A stretch of 64,000 nt of DNA, taken from the NCBI GenBank assembly GCA_008933805.1, contig WBUH01000002.1:314696-378695 (forward strand). The letters run 5' to 3'. The position numbers and the translations under genes are program-made. This document shows, one piece after another, positions 46,242-64,000 of the stretch; position 1 is the first letter of the stretch; each line of letters opens with the position of its first letter. The notes below the pieces were generated by a model. The model did not search any database. It was not told the origin of the DNA and worked only from the letters and a program-made list of their open reading frames with translations. This DNA is from Bacteroidota bacterium (GTDB lineage: Bacteria; Bacteroidota; Bacteroidia; UBA8524).

Positions 46242-46354
46242 GTTAAAAAGTTATAGGCAAATTAGTATGCGTGGGAGTAATAGTGAGCGTGTAAACTATA
46301 CTTAAACGGGTTTTAAGGCTACCCAACTTAGTGGGACTACTTAGGAAGACCTTG

Positions 46355-46470
46355 CATTATTGGTTTCCTGTCATGCTGACGAAGGAAGCATCTTATAAAG
46401 AATATGTAAACAGTTAACATATTTGTTATAGGATTCCTCGCTGCGCTTCGGAATGACAAAGATTAGCTAC
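46355..46470. repeat. GTCAT-hairpin REP-like element cluster at the island boundary
   Basis: Positions 46368-46392 (ctgtcatgctgacgaaggaagcatc) are the exact reverse complement of 18216-18240. A second hairpin lies at 46432-46468. Confidence 0.6.
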
Positions 46471-46575
46471 TTTCCGATACAAAAAGTAACTAACTTTTTT
46501 GTTAACAGTATTGGTAAGGGGTTTAACGGTTTACTGTTTTTCAAGGTACAAATAGGGTACAAAAGAAGACAAATA

Positions 46576-46830
46576 TCACTCACTTGTAATCCGTATTTTA
46601 GTATAATTGTCAGAAAGGTCGTCTATTCTACTTTGAACATCTTGCAGGTCGTATTTTATTTGTTGCAAGTCTTCATCTGTCTGAATTTGAATATTTCTTG
46701 TTCTTCTCTGTATAGTATCAATCCTTTTTTGAACATCTAACAATTTTGTATGCATATTGTAAGATAAATAGGCATTTGCAAGAAGTAAAATGAAAATAAA
46801 AAATATGGTAATAGGTACAGCTTTTTTCAT
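46576..46830 (-). CDS. small membrane/coiled-coil protein
   Basis: 84 aa with an N-terminal TM segment then coiled coil. Confidence 0.3.
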   Translation of the reverse strand: MKKAVPITIFFIFILLLANAYLSYNMHTKLLDVQKRIDTIQRRTRNIQIQTDEDLQQIKYDLQDVQSRIDDLSDNYTKIRITSE

Positions 46831-46854
46831 GCAGGTTTAACTTTTAAGGTTAAT

Positions 46855-47208
46855 TCAAATAGGTACACTTGCATAACCGGTTTCAGAAATGATAAGGTGG
46901 TCTAAAATTTCAATGTTTAGATATTTTGCCCCCATCTTTAAGTTGTTTGTTAGGTTTATATCTTCACCGCTTGGGGTTAGGTTCCCTGAAGGATGGTTAT
47001 GCACAAGTATAATCTTACGAATATTTTTTGAAGATGCTAAGTGAAACACGTCTAAGGGTTCTACTCCGGCTTTGTTTAAACTGCCCAATGCTACCAACTC
47101 AATAAATGAGATAACAAGGGTAGGGGTTAACCCGATTACCCAAAAGTGTTCTTTTTGACGGCCTAACCTGTTTTCACGCTTCAGCACCGCTTGCATAATA
47201 GTAAACAC
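46855..47208 (-). CDS. RadC-like JAB/MPN domain protein (short form)
   Basis: HNHPSG JAMM motif and GEDINLTNNL. Typical of the short RadC proteins found on mobile elements. Confidence 0.7.
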   Translation of the reverse strand: MFTIMQAVLKRENRLGRQKEHFWVIGLTPTLVISFIELVALGSLNKAGVEPLDVFHLASSKNIRKIILVHNHPSGNLTPSGEDINLTNNLKMGAKYLNIEILDHLIISETGYASVPI

Positions 47209-47789
47209 ATCTTCACTATTGGCAATCTTAATCTTTTGTTCTTTGGTTAAGCGGACTTGAATACAATGTCCGAATATACATTTATTGGGTTTAACTCCAA
47301 ATACAATAAGGTTATCTCAACTAAGGCAGATGCGTTCCGCTTAAAAGGAAAACAGGAAACGATTATTTACACAAGGGTTTAAGTTTAACCTATTGTCTCT
47401 ATCGTATAAAATATTACACACAAAGCCTTCATTTAGCTTACAAGGCTTTTCCCATAGTTATACAAGTTCAGTTCAGTATCTCTCACTTAGCATTCAAGTT
47501 CAAAGGTGTAATGAGTAACCTTTTCAACGCTTGGAAAAAAAGCACCGGGGGGGTATTTTTTTATGCGGGGGAGTGTTTTTATATTGGGGGTAGTATGTAG
47601 GCTCTCTCTCAGGTATTGGTTTGTAATGAATAAGATAAGGCTACAAGCAACAAAGGAAAAGGCTAAAAGAAGTATTATTTGGAGGGTTGTATAAGTTAAG
47701 TAAGGCTCTCTCTCATTGAGGACTGTTTTCATATAAGGCGTAGAATGTTGTTTCTTTCCCCAAAATAATATTAGTCAGAAAGATGTCTT

Positions 47790-61196: not shown

Positions 61197-61283
61197 GTCA
61201 TTCCCATTTAAAATGGGAATCTGTGAGGTGGACATTCTTAAAATTAGTCTTGCGCACAGAATCCCTCCTTCGAGGGAATGACG
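61197..61283. repeat. GTCAT-hairpin REP-like elements (two)
   Basis: 61197-61232 is near-identical to 41177-41215. 61259-61283 is gaatccctccttcgagggaatgacg of the same family in opposite orientation. Confidence 0.6.
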
Positions 61284-61385
61284 TTCCCAACTCACTCAAT
61301 ATGGAAGCGTAGTAATTGTTTTTACATTACCCGTTCATGTGTTCACAATGTTCACGTTCAGCAGTGTAAGTGCTTGTGAGCGCTT

Positions 61386-62426
61386 TTACAGGTTGATGTA
61401 TTTGTTTACCACCCCCAGCGATAAACCCAACTGCGATGCTATTTGCCTTTGGCTATGGCCGCACTTGCTAAGCTGTTTCACTTCATCAATAAGTTGCTCC
61501 CTGCCGGCTTCTTCGTGGGTGTGCAAATGCTCAGTCTCATAACTGTAGTTTAAAAACTCAAACTGCAAAAAATTAAGGGGTTTATCAATGCGGCATACGC
61601 ATACGTTTTCAGCCCCGTATAGTTGGGCGGTATTGCGTTGCTTTATCTGTTTAAGGTAGCGCAGTTGGGAGCTTTGTGTACTCTCGCCAATAGCAAAGGC
61701 ACTATCGCAAAAATTTATCAGCATTTTGCTGCCCTGCAAATCGTTTCGGGTAATGGGCTTGGCCAAATCGCGCTTGGGGGTGTGGGCTAAGGCCAGTATA
61801 GATAGGTTGTGCTTTGTTTTGAGGGCTTTCATCAGCTTCATAAGCGGTAGGGCATCTTTGGCCTTTTCGGTTTCGTTTTTCAAATACGTTATATTATCAA
61901 TAATTATTATTTGCGAACCTGTGTGCAATATGGCCTGCTCGAAAGATTGGTACAAAAATGTTTCGTAATCGGTGAAACCAACGGGCAAATCAGCATCGGG
62001 GTCAATCTCAGCACGGTGAAAACGGTGACTGAATTGGTAGTGGCCTTCGGTAGGGTGCATATAACGTATTTCAAACTGCTTTCCCGATAGTTCAAAATCA
62101 AAGTACAGCACCTTTTGCGGCGGGGTTTGCAGCGCAAAGCCGGGTATGGGCTGCCCGCGACTAATGCTGTCGCCCATTTGCACGGCCAGTATGCTTTTGC
62201 CAAGGTTGGTATCGGCAAACAGTATGCACAGCTCGCCTTCGTGCCAAAACTCGCTAAAGAGCATACGGGGCTGGGGTTTGTTTTTTACAGCATCAATCCA
62301 GCCGTTGGCGGTGTGCACGGCAAACAGTCCGAAAGTACCGTCGGTAGGAGTATTGGCCAGTTTTACGGCCTCGTTTTGAATGTCTTTTTGGGTGATGCTT
62401 GTTTTGATAGTTTTATTTTCATCCAT
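61386..62426 (-). CDS. AAA-family ATPase (RepA/AAA_25-like) with C-terminal HTH
   Basis: P-loop DTNLGKS and a C-terminal LuxR/sigma-70-region-4-like HTH (QIASQLGLSLGVV). Confidence 0.5.
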   Translation of the reverse strand: MDENKTIKTSITQKDIQNEAVKLANTPTDGTFGLFAVHTANGWIDAVKNKPQPRMLFSEFWHEGELCILFADTNLGKSILAVQMGDSISRGQPIPGFALQTPPQKVLYFDFELSGKQFEIRYMHPTEGHYQFSHRFHRAEIDPDADLPVGFTDYETFLYQSFEQAILHTGSQIIIIDNITYLKNETEKAKDALPLMKLMKALKTKHNLSILALAHTPKRDLAKPITRNDLQGSKMLINFCDSAFAIGESTQSSQLRYLKQIKQRNTAQLYGAENVCVCRIDKPLNFLQFEFLNYSYETEHLHTHEEAGREQLIDEVKQLSKCGHSQRQIASQLGLSLGVVNKYINL

Positions 62427-62529
62427 GCTCTATTATTTGAGAACGGATGGTTTGTTGCGGTTAGGCAATTGGCATTAAGGGATGGACGATGATGGTTCTG
62501 AAAACAGGCAATATGGTTATCATAAATTA

Positions 62530-63522
62530 CTAATACGCACCCAAAAATTTGTGTCCGTTAAAATGTACTAAGTGGTCTGGATTATCAGCAATCCAAACTT
62601 CTGTTTCCCAAGCTATATCAAGCATCCATTTTCTAAAATCAGCCCGAGTAAGAAAGCCAGTAACAAAAATTAATTCAGCATTGCAATCTTTTAGCATTTT
62701 CTTCAATTCTAGCACTCTAGTCTCACTCATAGGGCCAGAGCTGTATACTGCTTCAATTAAATAAAGCCAATTATTTTTCTTACTGTACGCAATTATATCA
62801 GGTAATTCATCATGTGATAACTCAAAGAAATTCAGCTTTTTCAATTCCTCCACTTCGATATGGAGACTTTTGTTTGATGTATCACCGATGTAGAGTACCT
62901 CACAATTACTACCAAAGCGGGATAAAAACTCCTCAATTAGAGCTTTTTGTAGAATATTATGCTCTCCTAATGAAAGCTCTATACTTTTCCCATTAGGAAG
63001 GCTTACAGGAATTTTCTCTAAGTCCCTTTTACGAGCAAGAGTTTCAGACAATGCAGGCTTTGCTTCATTAAATTTCCTTAATTCAATTTCCCATTGAGTT
63101 GTTTTGTAACTTAGTAATAACGTTTTGAAATCAGGATGTAAAGCATACCCTCTTGTTGGGTCATTTGTTGCTGAACCTTTATTAGCCCCACTATTTACAA
63201 CAAGGTCTGCAAGCACTAATAATTTAAGATCTTTCCGTCTGATATCATCATAAGAACCAGGAGAAATATTCTCTTCAAAGTTTTTATTAATGATTTGAAT
63301 AATCTCTCTTGTTTTAAGATGGATAGTATCATCAATGTTTTTTATTGTAACCCAATCATCAGTAACACCAGAAACAGCTAAAAAACTTAGTGCCATTTTC
63401 TCTAATGCTCTTTCAGATTTTTTGTCAAAAGGAATACCTACACTTTCTAAAATTTCGAGAGCTTCGTTAATAATTTTCTGAACAGCTTCTGATTTATTAC
63501 TCTTGCTGATGTAATTCTTCAT
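62530..63522 (-). CDS. BsuBI/PstI-family Type II restriction endonuclease
   Basis: C-terminal motif order LIEAVYS...FVTGF...IAWETEVWIA...HLVHFNGHKFLGAY, as recalled for the BsuBI/PstI RE family. Confidence 0.65.
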   Translation of the reverse strand: MKNYISKSNKSEAVQKIINEALEILESVGIPFDKKSERALEKMALSFLAVSGVTDDWVTIKNIDDTIHLKTREIIQIINKNFEENISPGSYDDIRRKDLKLLVLADLVVNSGANKGSATNDPTRGYALHPDFKTLLLSYKTTQWEIELRKFNEAKPALSETLARKRDLEKIPVSLPNGKSIELSLGEHNILQKALIEEFLSRFGSNCEVLYIGDTSNKSLHIEVEELKKLNFFELSHDELPDIIAYSKKNNWLYLIEAVYSSGPMSETRVLELKKMLKDCNAELIFVTGFLTRADFRKWMLDIAWETEVWIADNPDHLVHFNGHKFLGAY

Positions 63523-63525
63523 TTT

Positions 63526-64000
63526 TTAGAATAGAGATAAAACTTGATTGGGTTGCATATTATTTTCTATAATTTCAAGAGGGGAATAAAGTTGGTCTGT
63601 TTTAAAGCATTCTTTTAGTGAGGTTGCTAACTGATAAGCGAGTAGCGGGGGAACTGCGTTACCAATCTGATTAAATCTTTGTGTTTCATTACCAATAAAC
63701 TCAAACCAATCAGGAAAACTCTGTAACCGAGCAGCTTCATTATGAAGCAACCTTCTTCGTCTACCATCTTTTAATCTCACGCGTTGCATATCGCCTGTTG
63801 CTCCTGCAAGATTTCTGCAAGTCAAAGTCCTTGCTGGTTTTTCAAAGTATAAATCTCTAGGGTTAATACAGTGAGAGGCTTTTTCATATTTTGCAACATA
63901 AGCATCCATAGAGGGAGTTAGAAACTTACTATCACTTGGAGCGTTGAACATTGTATCGCCGATAGCTTCCCCAACAGTTACTTTCCTATTATGTGTCTGC
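63526..64000 (-). CDS. DNA (cytosine-5)-methyltransferase, C-terminal part (gene continues beyond window)
   Basis: Motif IX/X region QSFPDWF...GNAVPP typical of m5C methyltransferases. The ORF is open to the window edge. Confidence 0.75.
   Translation of the reverse strand, partial: QTHNRKVTVGEAIGDTMFNAPSDSKFLTPSMDAYVAKYEKASHCINPRDLYFEKPARTLTCRNLAGATGDMQRVRLKDGRRRRLLHNEAARLQSFPDWFEFIGNETQRFNQIGNAVPPLLAYQLATSLKECFKTDQLYSPLEIIENNMQPNQVLSLF

Follow-up and report, generated by a model that had tools for sequence, protein, structure and literature searches.

A probable remnant of a Tn4555-like integrative element, laden with defence genes, at the mnmE end of a Bacteroidota bacterium

The island and its genes

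The window, a 64,000-nucleotide stretch of a Bacteroidota contig, contains in its right-hand part most of a horizontally acquired, AT-rich island of 18.2 kb (46469-64670 in extended coordinates). The extension derives from the public contig L001, which is 100% identical over 7182 nt and adds 5.7 kb to the right of it. The island has a GC content of 37.7%, against 42.6% for the remaining 51.5 kb. In 5-kb windows within 46.5-56 kb GC falls to 0.35-0.385, the minimum among all 83 outside windows being 0.399, and tetranucleotide distance is maximal at 46-53 kb (0.29-0.31 vs 0.10-0.19 outside); both profiles bear out the predicted drop from about 46.3 kb. The drop is mosaic, with three blocks. Cargo genes are AT-rich, with a GC3 of 0.24-0.38, while the backbone genes are host-like (AAA_25, 0.54; DUF6371, 0.46; host mpl and mnmE, 0.50 and 0.52). 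Gene families were assigned by Pfam and PADLOC, and the gene content listed in the original prediction (RadC-JAB, YgjP, Type I R-M, zinc-ribbon, AAA+HTH, PstI-family endonuclease and m5C methyltransferase) was confirmed throughout. The features are as follows.

46369-46458, no strand: palindromic REP/MITE-like element of 90 nt between attR and mpl, outside the island
46469-46484, minus: attR core, TTTTGTATCGGAAAGT in mnmE-strand reading, identical at 15/16 positions to the final 16 nt of mnmE
46485-46563, minus: attR element-side (P) arm; TTAGTTACT abuts the core
46576-46830, minus: orf84, small predicted membrane or coiled-coil protein without family match (GC3 0.235)
46855-47278, minus: RadC-like JAB gene, backbone (Pfam RadC, E 1e-27)
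47487-47732, minus: orf81, hypothetical small membrane protein without family match
47790-48464, minus: YgjP-like metallopeptidase gene, last of its operon (Pfam, E 1e-58)
48464-51664, minus: hsdR, gene for the Type I restriction subunit, 1066 aa, intact (Pfam HSDR_N, SWI2_SNF2, T1R_D3, T1RH-like_C; PADLOC REase_I, E 8e-117)
51661-55404, minus: candidate PDC-S68 helicase-nuclease, 1247 aa (PADLOC PDLC05065, E=0, 1499 bits)
55428-56669, minus: hsdS, gene for the specificity subunit, two target-recognition domains (Pfam Methylase_S in two stretches; PADLOC Specificity_I)
56669-59560, minus: hsdM, Type I methyltransferase, 963 aa (Pfam HsdM_N and N6_Mtase, E 4e-105; PADLOC MTase_I, E 6e-253)
59673-60629, minus: Zn_ribbon_16 and DUF6371 protein, backbone (Pfam)
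60630-61385, no strand: AAA_25-DUF6371 spacer, 756 nt, ORF-less
61386-62426, minus: AAA_25 (RepA/DnaB-like) ATPase with C-terminal HTH, backbone (Pfam)
62530-63522, minus: BsuBI/PstI-family Type II endonuclease (Pfam, E 3e-62 and 1e-26; PADLOC REase_II, E 9e-76)
63526-64000, minus: m5C DNA methyltransferase, 3′ part (Pfam; NCBIfam dcm, E 6e-57)
64653-66029, off-window: mnmE, tRNA-modification gene
64655-64670, off-window: attL core, within the mnmE stop region

Three backbone genes are present. The annotated radC frame (46855-47208) encodes 117 aa from a GTG start; homology to the 135-aa protein of contig L137 reaches 47278, the ATG start having been lost. The two radC genes are 86% identical in amino acids and 82% in nucleotides, and that of L137 adjoins the attR of its element; orf84, absent there, is an insertion relative to L137. 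The DUF6371 protein, by inference primase-like, lacks the C-terminal DUF6965 domain found in L094, L088, L090 and L137; its alignment has invariant ESEK and LFPD motifs. Walker A is conserved in the alignment of the ATPase, which is 60-66% identical to at least 80 metagenomic relatives. Judged by reading frames and motifs, both genes look intact. The spacer between them, about 50-150 nt long in relatives, matches no Rfam family; a hairpin pair of REP-like type lies near 61190-61300.

The Type I genes form a tightly packed operon, hsdM-hsdS-PDC-S68-hsdR-ygjP, in which PDC-S68 overlaps the hsdR start by 4 nt and ygjP the hsdR stop by 1 nt. HsdM carries a long C-terminal extension. RecD matches, AF2 models (pLDDT 93 and 89) and fold searches suggest that PDC-S68 combines an N-terminal region of new fold with a RecD2-like SF1B helicase and, at the C-terminus, a PD-(D/E)xK nuclease. 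Its 1247-aa frame, overlooked in the earlier reading as a non-Type I gene, is a PADLOC defence candidate that also occurs alone. Homologues are 74-81% identical across phyla, ygjP likewise follows hsdR in L129, L130 and L131, and the whole five-gene cassette travels between phyla as a unit. The exact endonuclease and PDC-S68 proteins each turned up on contigs from one sample only. The endonuclease gene has a GC3 of 0.257, and the adjoining methyltransferase gene is completed on the extension (63526-64545, 339 aa).

No tRNA or tmRNA gene was detected in the window, and tblastn with the integrases of related elements and of Tn4555 found no integrase homologue in the 69.7-kb extended window, as predicted for the window itself. 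The island contains no Int, TnpA, Exc or Mob homologue, and none of its ORFs carries a relaxase, coupling protein or T4SS domain. The description "ICE-like" is therefore abandoned; in its backbone the island corresponds to small integrative (mobilizable) elements of the Tn4555 kind.

The two ends

The island stops 670 nt beyond the window, at the mnmE stop codon. L001 continues with 545 nt more of the methyltransferase gene, a 107-nt spacer and then core genes: mnmE, a 177-aa gene, a DUF2452 gene and genes with Caroten_synth and GSHPx matches. The original prediction had the element either probably running on past the window or being a decayed ICE-like island, and proposed a rightward extension in search of an integrase or tRNA; L001 instead passes through the methyltransferase 5′ end into integrase-free core sequence. 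Relatives retain mnmE along with the two genes preceding it. At attL the core alone is present, the integrase-side arm with two TTTGTACC repeats being gone. Since this core would belong to mnmE anyway, the boundary evidence here comes from the break of synteny where mnmE stops and not from an arm of the element.

An att repeat, not visible in the first reading, does exist: the attR and attL cores form an imperfect direct repeat of 16 nt, with arms specific to the family. The attR-type core also occurs in attP of circular relatives and in attL and attR of integrated ones. Tandem arm-type TTTGTACC repeats lie at 46545-46552 and 46556-46563, 11 nt apart, at an offset identical to that in L089. 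Ungapped comparison of the arm with its attP counterparts in L089 and L090 gives 54/95 and 53/95 identical positions (null 26.4 +/- 4.5), and the arm shares 79% nucleotide identity with the arm of L137. No internal att-like core was seen between the island modules when at most 2-4 mismatches were allowed. The REP-like cluster noted at this edge is real (folding z-score -2.95, with a 24-nt half-site recurring inverted at 18216-18239); it marks the flank just outside the element rather than the element end.

An element family at mnmE and its known counterparts

Intact family members of about 7-9 kb occur as circular contigs or integrated directly after mnmE. Their order is attP, a Zn-ribbon/HTH_17 "TnpA-like" gene, tyrosine integrase, variable slot, HTH_17 excisionase, AAA_25 ATPase, Zn-ribbon/DUF6371 protein, second variable slot and P arm. 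The complete gene set is found on circular IMG/VR contigs with 96-127-nt terminal repeats. Because the attP core is the same as the final 16-18 nt of mnmE, integration restores the gene end and leaves direct repeats; integrated copies flanked by two cores are seen in L151, L156 and L212, and related elements form tandem arrays at the site in L120. Neighbourhoods were counted at 80 metagenomic loci: upstream of AAA_25 lie an excisionase (57/65), an integrase (20/23) and, in 16 loci, mnmE, and DUF6371 follows closely downstream in 51/53 relatives. In the island both variable slots are occupied by defence cargo, the m5C methyltransferase and PstI-family endonuclease filling the one between integrase and excisionase and the Type I operon the other.

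The closest relative, L137, has radC, arm and core end in common with the island at 79-86% identity; the AAA_25 proteins of the closest intact relatives reach only 60-66%. The island is absent from the three nearest relatives. Its genes occur neither downstream of mnmE in relatives with 93%- and 90%-identical MnmE nor near mpl in a relative with 79%-identical Mpl. The 93% relatives have a 194-aa gene and ribBA after mnmE and the 90% relative has other genes, and two contigs encoding the same MnmE as the latter have an element of the family there. The distal flank, with the REP-like element and mpl, matched no relative's mnmE-downstream region, and a clean empty site with both flanks was not found among the relatives.

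Tn4555 is a Bacteroides mobilizable transposon, or IME, with cfxA; it has a circular form (PMC5704250). It is ordered TnpA (HTH), tyrosine integrase, a third gene, excisionase, AAA ATPase, DUF6371 and cargo (PMC13183296), and its circular form (CP103138.1) has this gene order in common with the element family. Its proteins are 44% (AAA_25) and 41% (DUF6371) identical to those of the island, and 36% (Int), 33% (Exc) and 25% (TnpA) to those of the intact member L094, in which no Mob or TnpC homologue was detected. Unlike Tn4555, the island lacks integrase, TnpA, excisionase and Mob genes, and its cargo is defence genes rather than a beta-lactamase. Tn4555 prefers two sites and its Int is of low specificity (PMC5704250), whereas the family has a single target, the 3′ end of mnmE, where the identity core measures 16-18 nt.

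CIMEs (cis-mobilizable elements) are decayed ICEs or IMEs that keep attL and attR and have lost integration and transfer genes (PMC5704250). The island resembles them in lacking such genes, in its apparent derivation from a site-specific element, in its whole attR and in the tandem relatives at the site; its attL is only the mnmE-borne core, so that both att sites are not strictly retained. With the integrase-side arm gone, excision in trans is doubtful. SGI1-family IMEs of Gammaproteobacteria insert at the trmE (= mnmE) 3′ end, their tyrosine integrase adjoining the target gene, and combine a replication module with cargo (PMC8409611). The island differs in phylum and cargo type, lacks IncC-dependent mobilisation genes and shows no sign of an SGI1 backbone, and the common target is most simply explained by convergence.

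An IME on the Bacteroides plasmid pBUN2 (NZ_AP019726.1) reads HTH, integrase, further genes, HTH, DUF3987, DUF6371, MobC, relaxase and Type I R-M. Here too Type I R-M lies downstream of the DUF6371 module, and the DUF6371 protein is 45.5% identical to that of the island; integrase and relaxase are present, DUF3987 replaces AAA_25, and PDC-S68 is lacking. The E. coli prr locus, hsdM-hsdS-prrC-hsdR, encodes the anticodon nuclease PrrC and has an extra defence gene between hsdS and hsdR, as do the island, L129, L130 and L131 with PDC-S68. The likeness is positional, PDC-S68 being a predicted SF1B helicase with a PD-(D/E)xK nuclease.

Origin and present state of the island

The locus could be read as an intact ICE or IME that has its integrase, its tRNA target or a second att site to the right of the window, since the methyltransferase gene crosses the right window end and the first reading saw no integrase inside. 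This is very improbable: L001 supplies only the methyltransferase remainder, a spacer and core genes, attL sits at the mnmE stop, and conjugation and relaxase domains are absent. A prophage or phage satellite is similarly remote. IMG/VR, the source of the relatives, is a collection of predicted viral contigs, AAA_25-DUF6371 relatives occur in it, and in the larger predicted viral contigs L105 and L118 a related integrase follows the same core; however, capsid, terminase, portal and lysis domains are missing from both the island and the 7-kb elements, and the gene order is the one found in Tn4555, a mobilizable transposon characterised by experiment (PMC5704250). A vertically inherited core cluster, its low GC reflecting gene function, would accord with the GC dip at 14-17 kb (0.36-0.38) and the host-like GC3 of the AAA_25 and DUF6371 genes. 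It is contradicted by the absence of the island genes downstream of mnmE in the 93% and 90% MnmE relatives and near mpl in the 79% Mpl relative, by the one-sample occurrence of the exact endonuclease and PDC-S68 proteins and by the conservation of PDC-S68 across phyla, and is almost certainly wrong; the island gene order, which by the original prediction would recur in all relatives if it were core, is missing from the three closest.

A chromosomal defence hotspot filled piecemeal, with R-M cassettes, PDC-S68 and the AAA_25/DUF6371 pair arriving separately and no single element ever spanning 46469-64670, deserves somewhat more weight and is still unlikely. The three-block composition, the differing mnmE-downstream content in every relative examined, the tandem arrays and the mobility of the Type I cassette fit it. 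Against it, an attR with element arm lies at the far end beside radC, a backbone gene in L137, so that the ends of one element bracket the whole stretch, and the cargo occupies exactly the two slots that vary among intact family members. The two views partly overlap, because cargo gain within the element would itself be piecemeal.

The island is thus very likely the remnant of a Tn4555-like site-specific integrative element of Bacteroidota at the mnmE end, and the predicted defence or mobile island stands as horizontally acquired, AT-rich, integrase-free and decayed. It kept AAA_25, DUF6371, the RadC-JAB gene, and a complete attR (core and arm-type repeats), and it is oriented towards mnmE as other family members are; it lacks the TnpA-like gene, integrase, excisionase, any relaxase and the integrase-side attL arm. 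The element would have entered the mnmE 3′ end by Int-mediated recombination and then gained AT-rich defence cassettes. Its recombination module would afterwards have been removed, possibly by deletion, by R-M cassette replacement or by tandem accretion followed by deletion, which would fix the element in place; it is probably immobile. Its present role may be that of a defence island in which two R-M systems would cleave incoming DNA that lacks methylation, the PDC-S68 helicase-nuclease providing an additional layer. A decayed Tn4555-like defence island is of a kind already known; the mnmE target of the element family may be new, as may a PDC-S68 helicase-nuclease inside a Type I operon.

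Limits, composition and variability of the island

The restriction endonuclease (REase) of the BsuBI/PstI family was found as an exact protein on one public contig, Logan SRR10172992 (L001). This contig matches the window at 100% identity over 7182 nt and extends it by 5674 nt on the right. On it, the full m5C DNA methyltransferase (MTase) is encoded (339 aa, up to 64545 in extended coordinates). A 107-nt spacer separates it from mnmE (64653-66029), after which come a 177-aa gene and one with DUF2452, all on the same strand; genes with Caroten_synth and GSHPx matches lie further on. 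Because mnmE follows the MTase on L001, the island ends 670 nt past the window, and the 5674-nt extension holds neither an integrase nor a tRNA. This contradicts the alternative, raised in the original prediction, that the element runs on towards one of these. An extension of a few kilobases can decide whether an element continues beyond a window. The genes of the island within the window are as follows.

Island genes in the window, assigned with Pfam and PADLOC
46855-47208, minus, RadC-JAB
47790-48464, minus, YgjP-like protein
48464-51664, minus, HsdR
51661-55404, minus, PDC-S68, a 1247-aa ORF between hsdS and hsdR (PADLOC, E=0)
55428-56669, minus, HsdS
56669-59560, minus, HsdM
59673-60629, minus, Zn_ribbon_16+DUF6371
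61386-62426, minus, AAA_25+HTH
62530-63522, minus, BsuBI/PstI REase
63526 onward, minus, m5C MTase, 3′ part

Every gene named in the original prediction was recovered. The 1247-aa ORF, unremarked there, is PDC-S68 and not a Type I subunit according to PADLOC. ARAGORN finds no tRNA in the window, as had been stated, and no Rfam family reaches its gathering threshold in 44-64 kb. Island ORFs of at least 80 aa contain no relaxase, coupling protein or type IV secretion domain in Pfam, so the label "ICE-like" is not supported.

The AT-rich stretch read from about 46.3 kb onward is confirmed by GC content and tetranucleotide distance. GC falls from ~0.42 to 0.33-0.38 between 46 and 57 kb of the window, and amounts to 37.7% over the island (46469-64670) versus 42.6% in the other 51.5 kb. 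Windows of 5 kb in the left two-thirds of the island have a GC of 0.35-0.385, under the minimum of 0.399 among 83 outside windows, and the tetranucleotide distance to the rest peaks at 0.29-0.31, compared with 0.10-0.19 outside. This compositional signal is a mosaic. GC3 is 0.24-0.38 in orf84, ygjP, hsdR, hsdS, hsdM and the genes for PDC-S68, the PstI-family REase and the m5C MTase, while the values of AAA_25 (0.54) and DUF6371 (0.46) are close to those of two host genes, mpl (0.50) and mnmE (0.52). A milder low-GC stretch (0.36-0.38) occurs elsewhere, at 14000-17000 of the window; it contains two Pfam-less ORFs (14533-16178) and adjoins genes of cell-envelope/polysaccharide type, and its equivalent is partly replaced in the related contigs L002 and L082.

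On the mnmE side, three relatives (L082-L084; MnmE 93% identical) retain mnmE together with the two genes ahead of it, for DUF2452 and a 179-aa protein; after mnmE they have a 194-aa gene, ribBA and ABC-F. Unrelated genes and an IS1 transposase come after mnmE in a complete MAG chromosome (L085; MnmE 90%), and two other contigs encoding the same MnmE protein (L086, L087) have a 182-aa Zn-ribbon/HTH_17 gene 238 nt after mnmE. All these sequences diverge exactly at the mnmE stop codon, and none of the six carries island genes after mnmE. An exact-protein look-up of Mpl returned no records; a genome scan with Mpl gave a single close relative, L002 (Mpl 79%), in which ABC-F is joined to mpl and island genes are likewise absent. 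Since relatives on both sides lack its genes, the region is variable and not core, in keeping with its original reading as an island. L002 was rejected as an empty site on account of this junction and its scrambled synteny, and none of the relatives compared has a clean empty site bordered by the two flanks seen in the window.

A palindromic REP/MITE-like unit of ~90 nt (46369-46458) lies between the attR site of the island and mpl. One further, inverted occurrence of its 24-nt half-site TGTCATGCTGACGAAGGAAGCATC, at 18216-18239 (aligned identity ~27 nt), is part of a second REP/MITE-like copy (18165-18239) in the spacer after ABC-F. The two copies are the exact synteny breakpoints relative to L002, in which ABC-F abuts mpl and the sequence of the window is collinear in reverse from 46229 down to 37664. 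This suggests a ~28-kb inversion between the two copies. Such an event, if it occurred, would account for the failure of the distal island flank to match any relative.

A Tn4555-like family at the 3′ end of mnmE

Relatives of the AAA_25 and DUF6371 genes in IMG/VR include contigs of 6.1-7.8 kb with terminal direct repeats of 96-127 nt; these repeats indicate that the contigs are circular assemblies. The gene order of one of them, L094, is listed below.

Genes of the circular relative L094, in order
Gene 1, 187-aa Zn-ribbon/HTH_17 protein
Gene 2, 380-aa tyrosine integrase (Arm-DNA-bind_5, SAM_5, Phage_integrase)
Gene 3, 467-aa protein, no assigned identity
Gene 4, 117-aa HTH_17 excisionase-like protein
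Gene 5, AAA_25
Gene 6, Zn_ribbon_16+DUF6371+DUF6965
Gene 7, 226-aa HTH protein

The 182-aa protein encoded after mnmE in L086/L087 is 54% identical to the product of gene 1. The gene order of Tn4555 is found in CP103138.1, a 10,057-bp circular B. fragilis record with cfxA. Between this record and the window, identity is 44% for the AAA protein and 41% for the DUF6371 protein; between it and L094, identity is 36% for Int, 33% for Exc and 25% for TnpA. Tn4555 is an IME whose transfer depends on ICEs; it encodes a tyrosine integrase and a MobP relaxase, and its targeting gene, tnpA, lies upstream of int (PMC5704250).

With AAA_25 as query, a metagenome scan gave at least 415 relatives, and family statistics were drawn from the 80 best (60-66% identity). 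Among these, 57 of 65 have an excisionase no more than 900 nt upstream of AAA_25, and DUF6371 follows AAA_25 in 51 of 53. An integrase is present upstream in 20 of the 23 loci with more than 3.6 kb of upstream sequence, and mnmE stands ahead of the element in 16 loci. The distance between Int and Exc varies (e.g. in L154 and L208), which makes this interval a cargo slot; the interval from DUF6371 to the P arm is a second one.

All circular elements contain a core, TT(T/C)TGTAT(T/C)GGAAAGTAA, ~250 nt upstream of the first gene. It corresponds to the last 16-18 nt of mnmE, and the sequence after it to that after the mnmE stop in L086/L087. Repeats of TTTGTACC flank the core: on its upstream side there are one or two, at a distance of ~45-80 nt, and on its downstream side two, at ~140 and 180 nt, a layout that fits candidate arm-type sites for an integrase with an arm-binding domain. 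Three integrated copies of 7.1-8.0 kb (L151, L156, L212) each have two direct cores at their ends, with the P′ arm at attL and a tandem TTTGTACC arm at attR. Accretion in tandem at the mnmE 3′ end is seen in an IMG/VR contig (L120, 126-12733), where a full element (TnpA-like, Int, Exc, DUF6371) precedes a second pair of TnpA-like and integrase genes. No second full core was found between the two, only a 10-nt partial match, CGGAAAGTAA, at ~7991-8000.

Four larger predicted viral contigs of 12-40 kb (L105, L118, L103, L112) have the mnmE-end core and, after it, a 40%-identical integrase, and are devoid of the AAA_25/DUF6371 module; in L103 and L112, the order is mnmE, core and integrase. Elements that are unrelated, possibly prophages, may share this attachment site. 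A related integrase/DUF6371/MobC-relaxase element resides on the B. uniformis plasmid pBUN2 (L102, 47001-65021); its cargo comprises Type I R-M genes together with one gene each for RhuM and a reverse transcriptase. The placement of defence cargo after the DUF6371 module therefore recurs in gut Bacteroides.

A literature search for mnmE as an integration target turned up only Gammaproteobacteria. The relatives may constitute an undescribed and abundant family of environmental Bacteroidota, with at least 415 metagenomic members, ~7-kb circles, a Tn4555-like organization and specificity for the 3′ end of mnmE. If undescribed, this family may use its two cargo slots to shuttle defence systems and may be a convergent counterpart of SGI1. 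The SGI1 family also integrates at the 3′ end of trmE/mnmE, as does the element of the window. It belongs, however, to another phylum, and in its Pfam content the island shows no SGI1 backbone gene such as int, xis, rep, tra or mps.

A decayed copy with attachment-site remnants

The island had been described as having no visible att repeat. This is contradicted by a core in mnmE orientation, ACTTTCCGATACAAAA, at 46469-46484 (15/16 identity), which was located by scanning the extended window for the mnmE end with mismatches allowed. The core mismatch falls at position 9; no direct repeat shared by the two island edges emerged from a search with exact k-mers (k≥10), and a general repeat search of 45.8-64 kb gave only families at chance level. 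Core matches of 15/16 quality arise a few times by chance, and three further features single out 46469-46484. It is placed at the island edge; TTAGTTACT directly adjoins it, as in the circular relatives L089 and L090; and two TTTGTACC repeats, 11 nt apart, occupy its arm with the same offset as in L089. The 95-nt attR arm matches the attP arms of L089 and L090 at 54/95 and 53/95 positions, respectively, against a null of 26.4 ± 4.5 over 86,958 positions, the maximum of which is the attR site itself. At attL, only the core is present. The downstream (P′) arm and its two repeats are absent, and the MTase gene lies 107 nt after the mnmE stop. An island without a visible integrase can still be assigned to an element family, and its exact ends located, from the att cores and arm motifs of relatives.

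The closest relative of this element is L137. On that contig, DUF6371 is preceded, in order, by a DNA methyltransferase-like ORF (756 aa, truncated at the contig start), a gene of 357 aa, Exc and AAA_25; after it come genes of 106 aa and 193 aa, RadC-JAB, the P arm and the core. The radC gene of L137 shares 86% protein and 82% DNA identity with that of the window, and arm plus core are 79% identical in DNA. Since radC, arm and core form a shared end, RadC-JAB is a gene of the element and not an unrelated fragment. Read on the mnmE strand, the window has mnmE with the attL core, the MTase and PstI-family REase genes, AAA_25, a 756-nt spacer and DUF6371; then hsdM, hsdS, PDC-S68, hsdR, ygjP and orf81; then radC, orf84, the P arm, the attR core, the REP-like element and mpl. 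This order and orientation agree with the family, and the two blocks, MTase-REase and hsdM-to-orf81, fill its two cargo slots.

No integrase is encoded inside the window, as had been noted. Queries from related elements, Tn4555 and pBUN2 gave no tblastn match (E≤1e-2 to 1e-3) in the 69.7-kb extended window, and no island ORF has a Phage_integrase domain. Homologues of the TnpA-like HTH gene and the HTH_17 excisionase are also missing from the extended window, the PstI-family REase gene adjoining AAA_25 instead, and no match was obtained to Tn4555 Mob, pBUN2 MobC or the pBUN2 relaxase. AAA_25 aligns across its full conserved length and its Walker A motif is intact. The DUF6371 protein keeps the invariant ESEK and LFPD; it ends ~20 aa after the conserved core, without DUF6965, and only 112 nt separate its gene from hsdM. 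In radC-JAB (46855-47278), the ATG start is lost (ATG AAT in L137, ATT CAA in the window), and the gene is readable only from a GTG 18 codons downstream, with the JAB motif HNHPSG intact. The ORF-less spacer of 756 nt between AAA_25 and DUF6371 (60630-61385) corresponds to a gap of ~50-150 nt in relatives. It may represent inserted sequence, the remains of a gene or an origin of replication, and a pair of REP-like hairpins, GTCATTCC...GGAATGAC, is situated inside it at ~61190-61300.

The absence of the P′ arm, of the TnpA-like, integrase and excisionase genes and of any relaxase, together with the damage to radC and DUF6371, identifies the element as decayed, and it is probably immobile because it has no recombinase and one att arm is gone. 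Like a CIME (PMC5704250), the island is devoid of integration and transfer genes; a CIME retains both att sites, however, which applies here only in part, attR being complete and attL reduced to its core. With Tn4555-like elements it shares the adjacent AAA ATPase and Zn-ribbon/DUF6371 genes in order, and an attR core and P arm homologous to the family attP, but it differs from them in having no tyrosine integrase, TnpA-like gene, excisionase or relaxase. At the mnmE 3′ end, the island represents a Tn4555-like integrative element, decayed and without an integrase, whose present role is that of a defence island. The decayed and integrase-less mobile/defence island of the original interpretation thereby stands, and its ICE-like affiliation does not. 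In this scenario, a small Tn4555-like element at mnmE would have gained two R-M systems and a candidate helicase-nuclease, and later lost its recombination genes. The island thus documents how defence cargo becomes fixed in a chromosome.

Restriction systems and PDC-S68

PADLOC places Type I R-M, Type II R-M and PDC-S68 all within 16 kb. The region is a defence island in the sense that at least two defence systems are clustered on horizontally acquired DNA absent from relatives. In the Type I system, HsdM, HsdS (two TRDs) and HsdR are intact in one operon. The genes hsdM, hsdS, PDC-S68, hsdR and ygjP abut or overlap, with junctions of 1 nt, a 23-nt gap, 4 nt and 1 nt in that order. PDC-S68, which PADLOC lists as a candidate defence system of one gene, matches profile PDLC05065 (E=0, 1499 bits) with residues 7-1245 on positions 3-1219 of 1221. 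The five-gene order (window 47790-59560) recurs in distant hosts, at 4016-15501 of L129 and 4191-15674 of L130/L131, with PDC-S68 proteins ~76% identical to that of the window. The closest homologues (L132-L136) stand alone, the top two (79-80%) in other defence neighbourhoods, and the idea that PDC-S68 is always embedded in Type I operons was rejected accordingly. Operon copies and stand-alone homologues together point to an autonomous module recurrently placed between hsdS and hsdR, a position that corresponds to that of prrC in the E. coli prr locus. Homologues of 74-81% identity occur in genomes labelled Bacteroidota, Pseudomonas, Deltaproteobacteria and Pseudothermotoga.

The core of PDC-S68 is RecD2-like SF1B. 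The C-terminal 188 residues of the protein (AF2 pLDDT 89) yield a model that matches PD-(D/E)xK nucleases such as Bax1, R2 endonuclease and Hjc (prob up to 1.0, E ~3e-3), and the region has conserved E, D and E-H residues. We infer that PDC-S68 is a predicted DNA helicase-nuclease. The AF2 model of residues 1-520 (window 53845-55404) has a pLDDT of 93, and a fold search with it gave no significant PDB match. The best matches, PUA-like 2p5d and 1wmm (E 0.3-0.7, prob ≤0.38), are insignificant, and a PUA/EVE sensor is not claimed. Pfam at E≤10 gave nothing usable for the N- and C-terminal parts. The modelled N-terminal region may represent a new fold or sensor domain. It displays invariant Cys, Trp and His residues and a motif RVPWHD..W.G..C..P..N..C, and is shared by ~1385 cluster representatives.

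No paper on PDC-S68 was found in literature searches. It is conceivable, if rather unlikely, that hsdM-hsdS-PDC-S68-hsdR-ygjP acts as a composite five-gene restriction system, in which a helicase-nuclease with a new-fold N-terminal sensor is coupled to the Type I enzyme. PDC-S68 could then be a back-up triggered by blocked restriction, or a modification-dependent arm. The island itself is ordinary; what may be new is an element family specific for mnmE and the occurrence of PDC-S68 inside Type I operons. Both leads, along with the single target site used by the family, are accessible to experiment.

The Type II pair is intact, the REase having both domains of the BsuBI/PstI family and adjoining the m5C MTase. 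CTGCAG is strongly depleted in the extended window (1-69674), with 3 sites observed versus 18.7 expected from a Markov estimate. This is compatible with a PstI-like specificity of the pair and only suggestive of it, not proof. Several other palindromes are depleted over the same sequence, among them CATATG (1 versus 10 expected), a pattern compatible with a history of prolonged exposure to restriction systems that recognize those sites.
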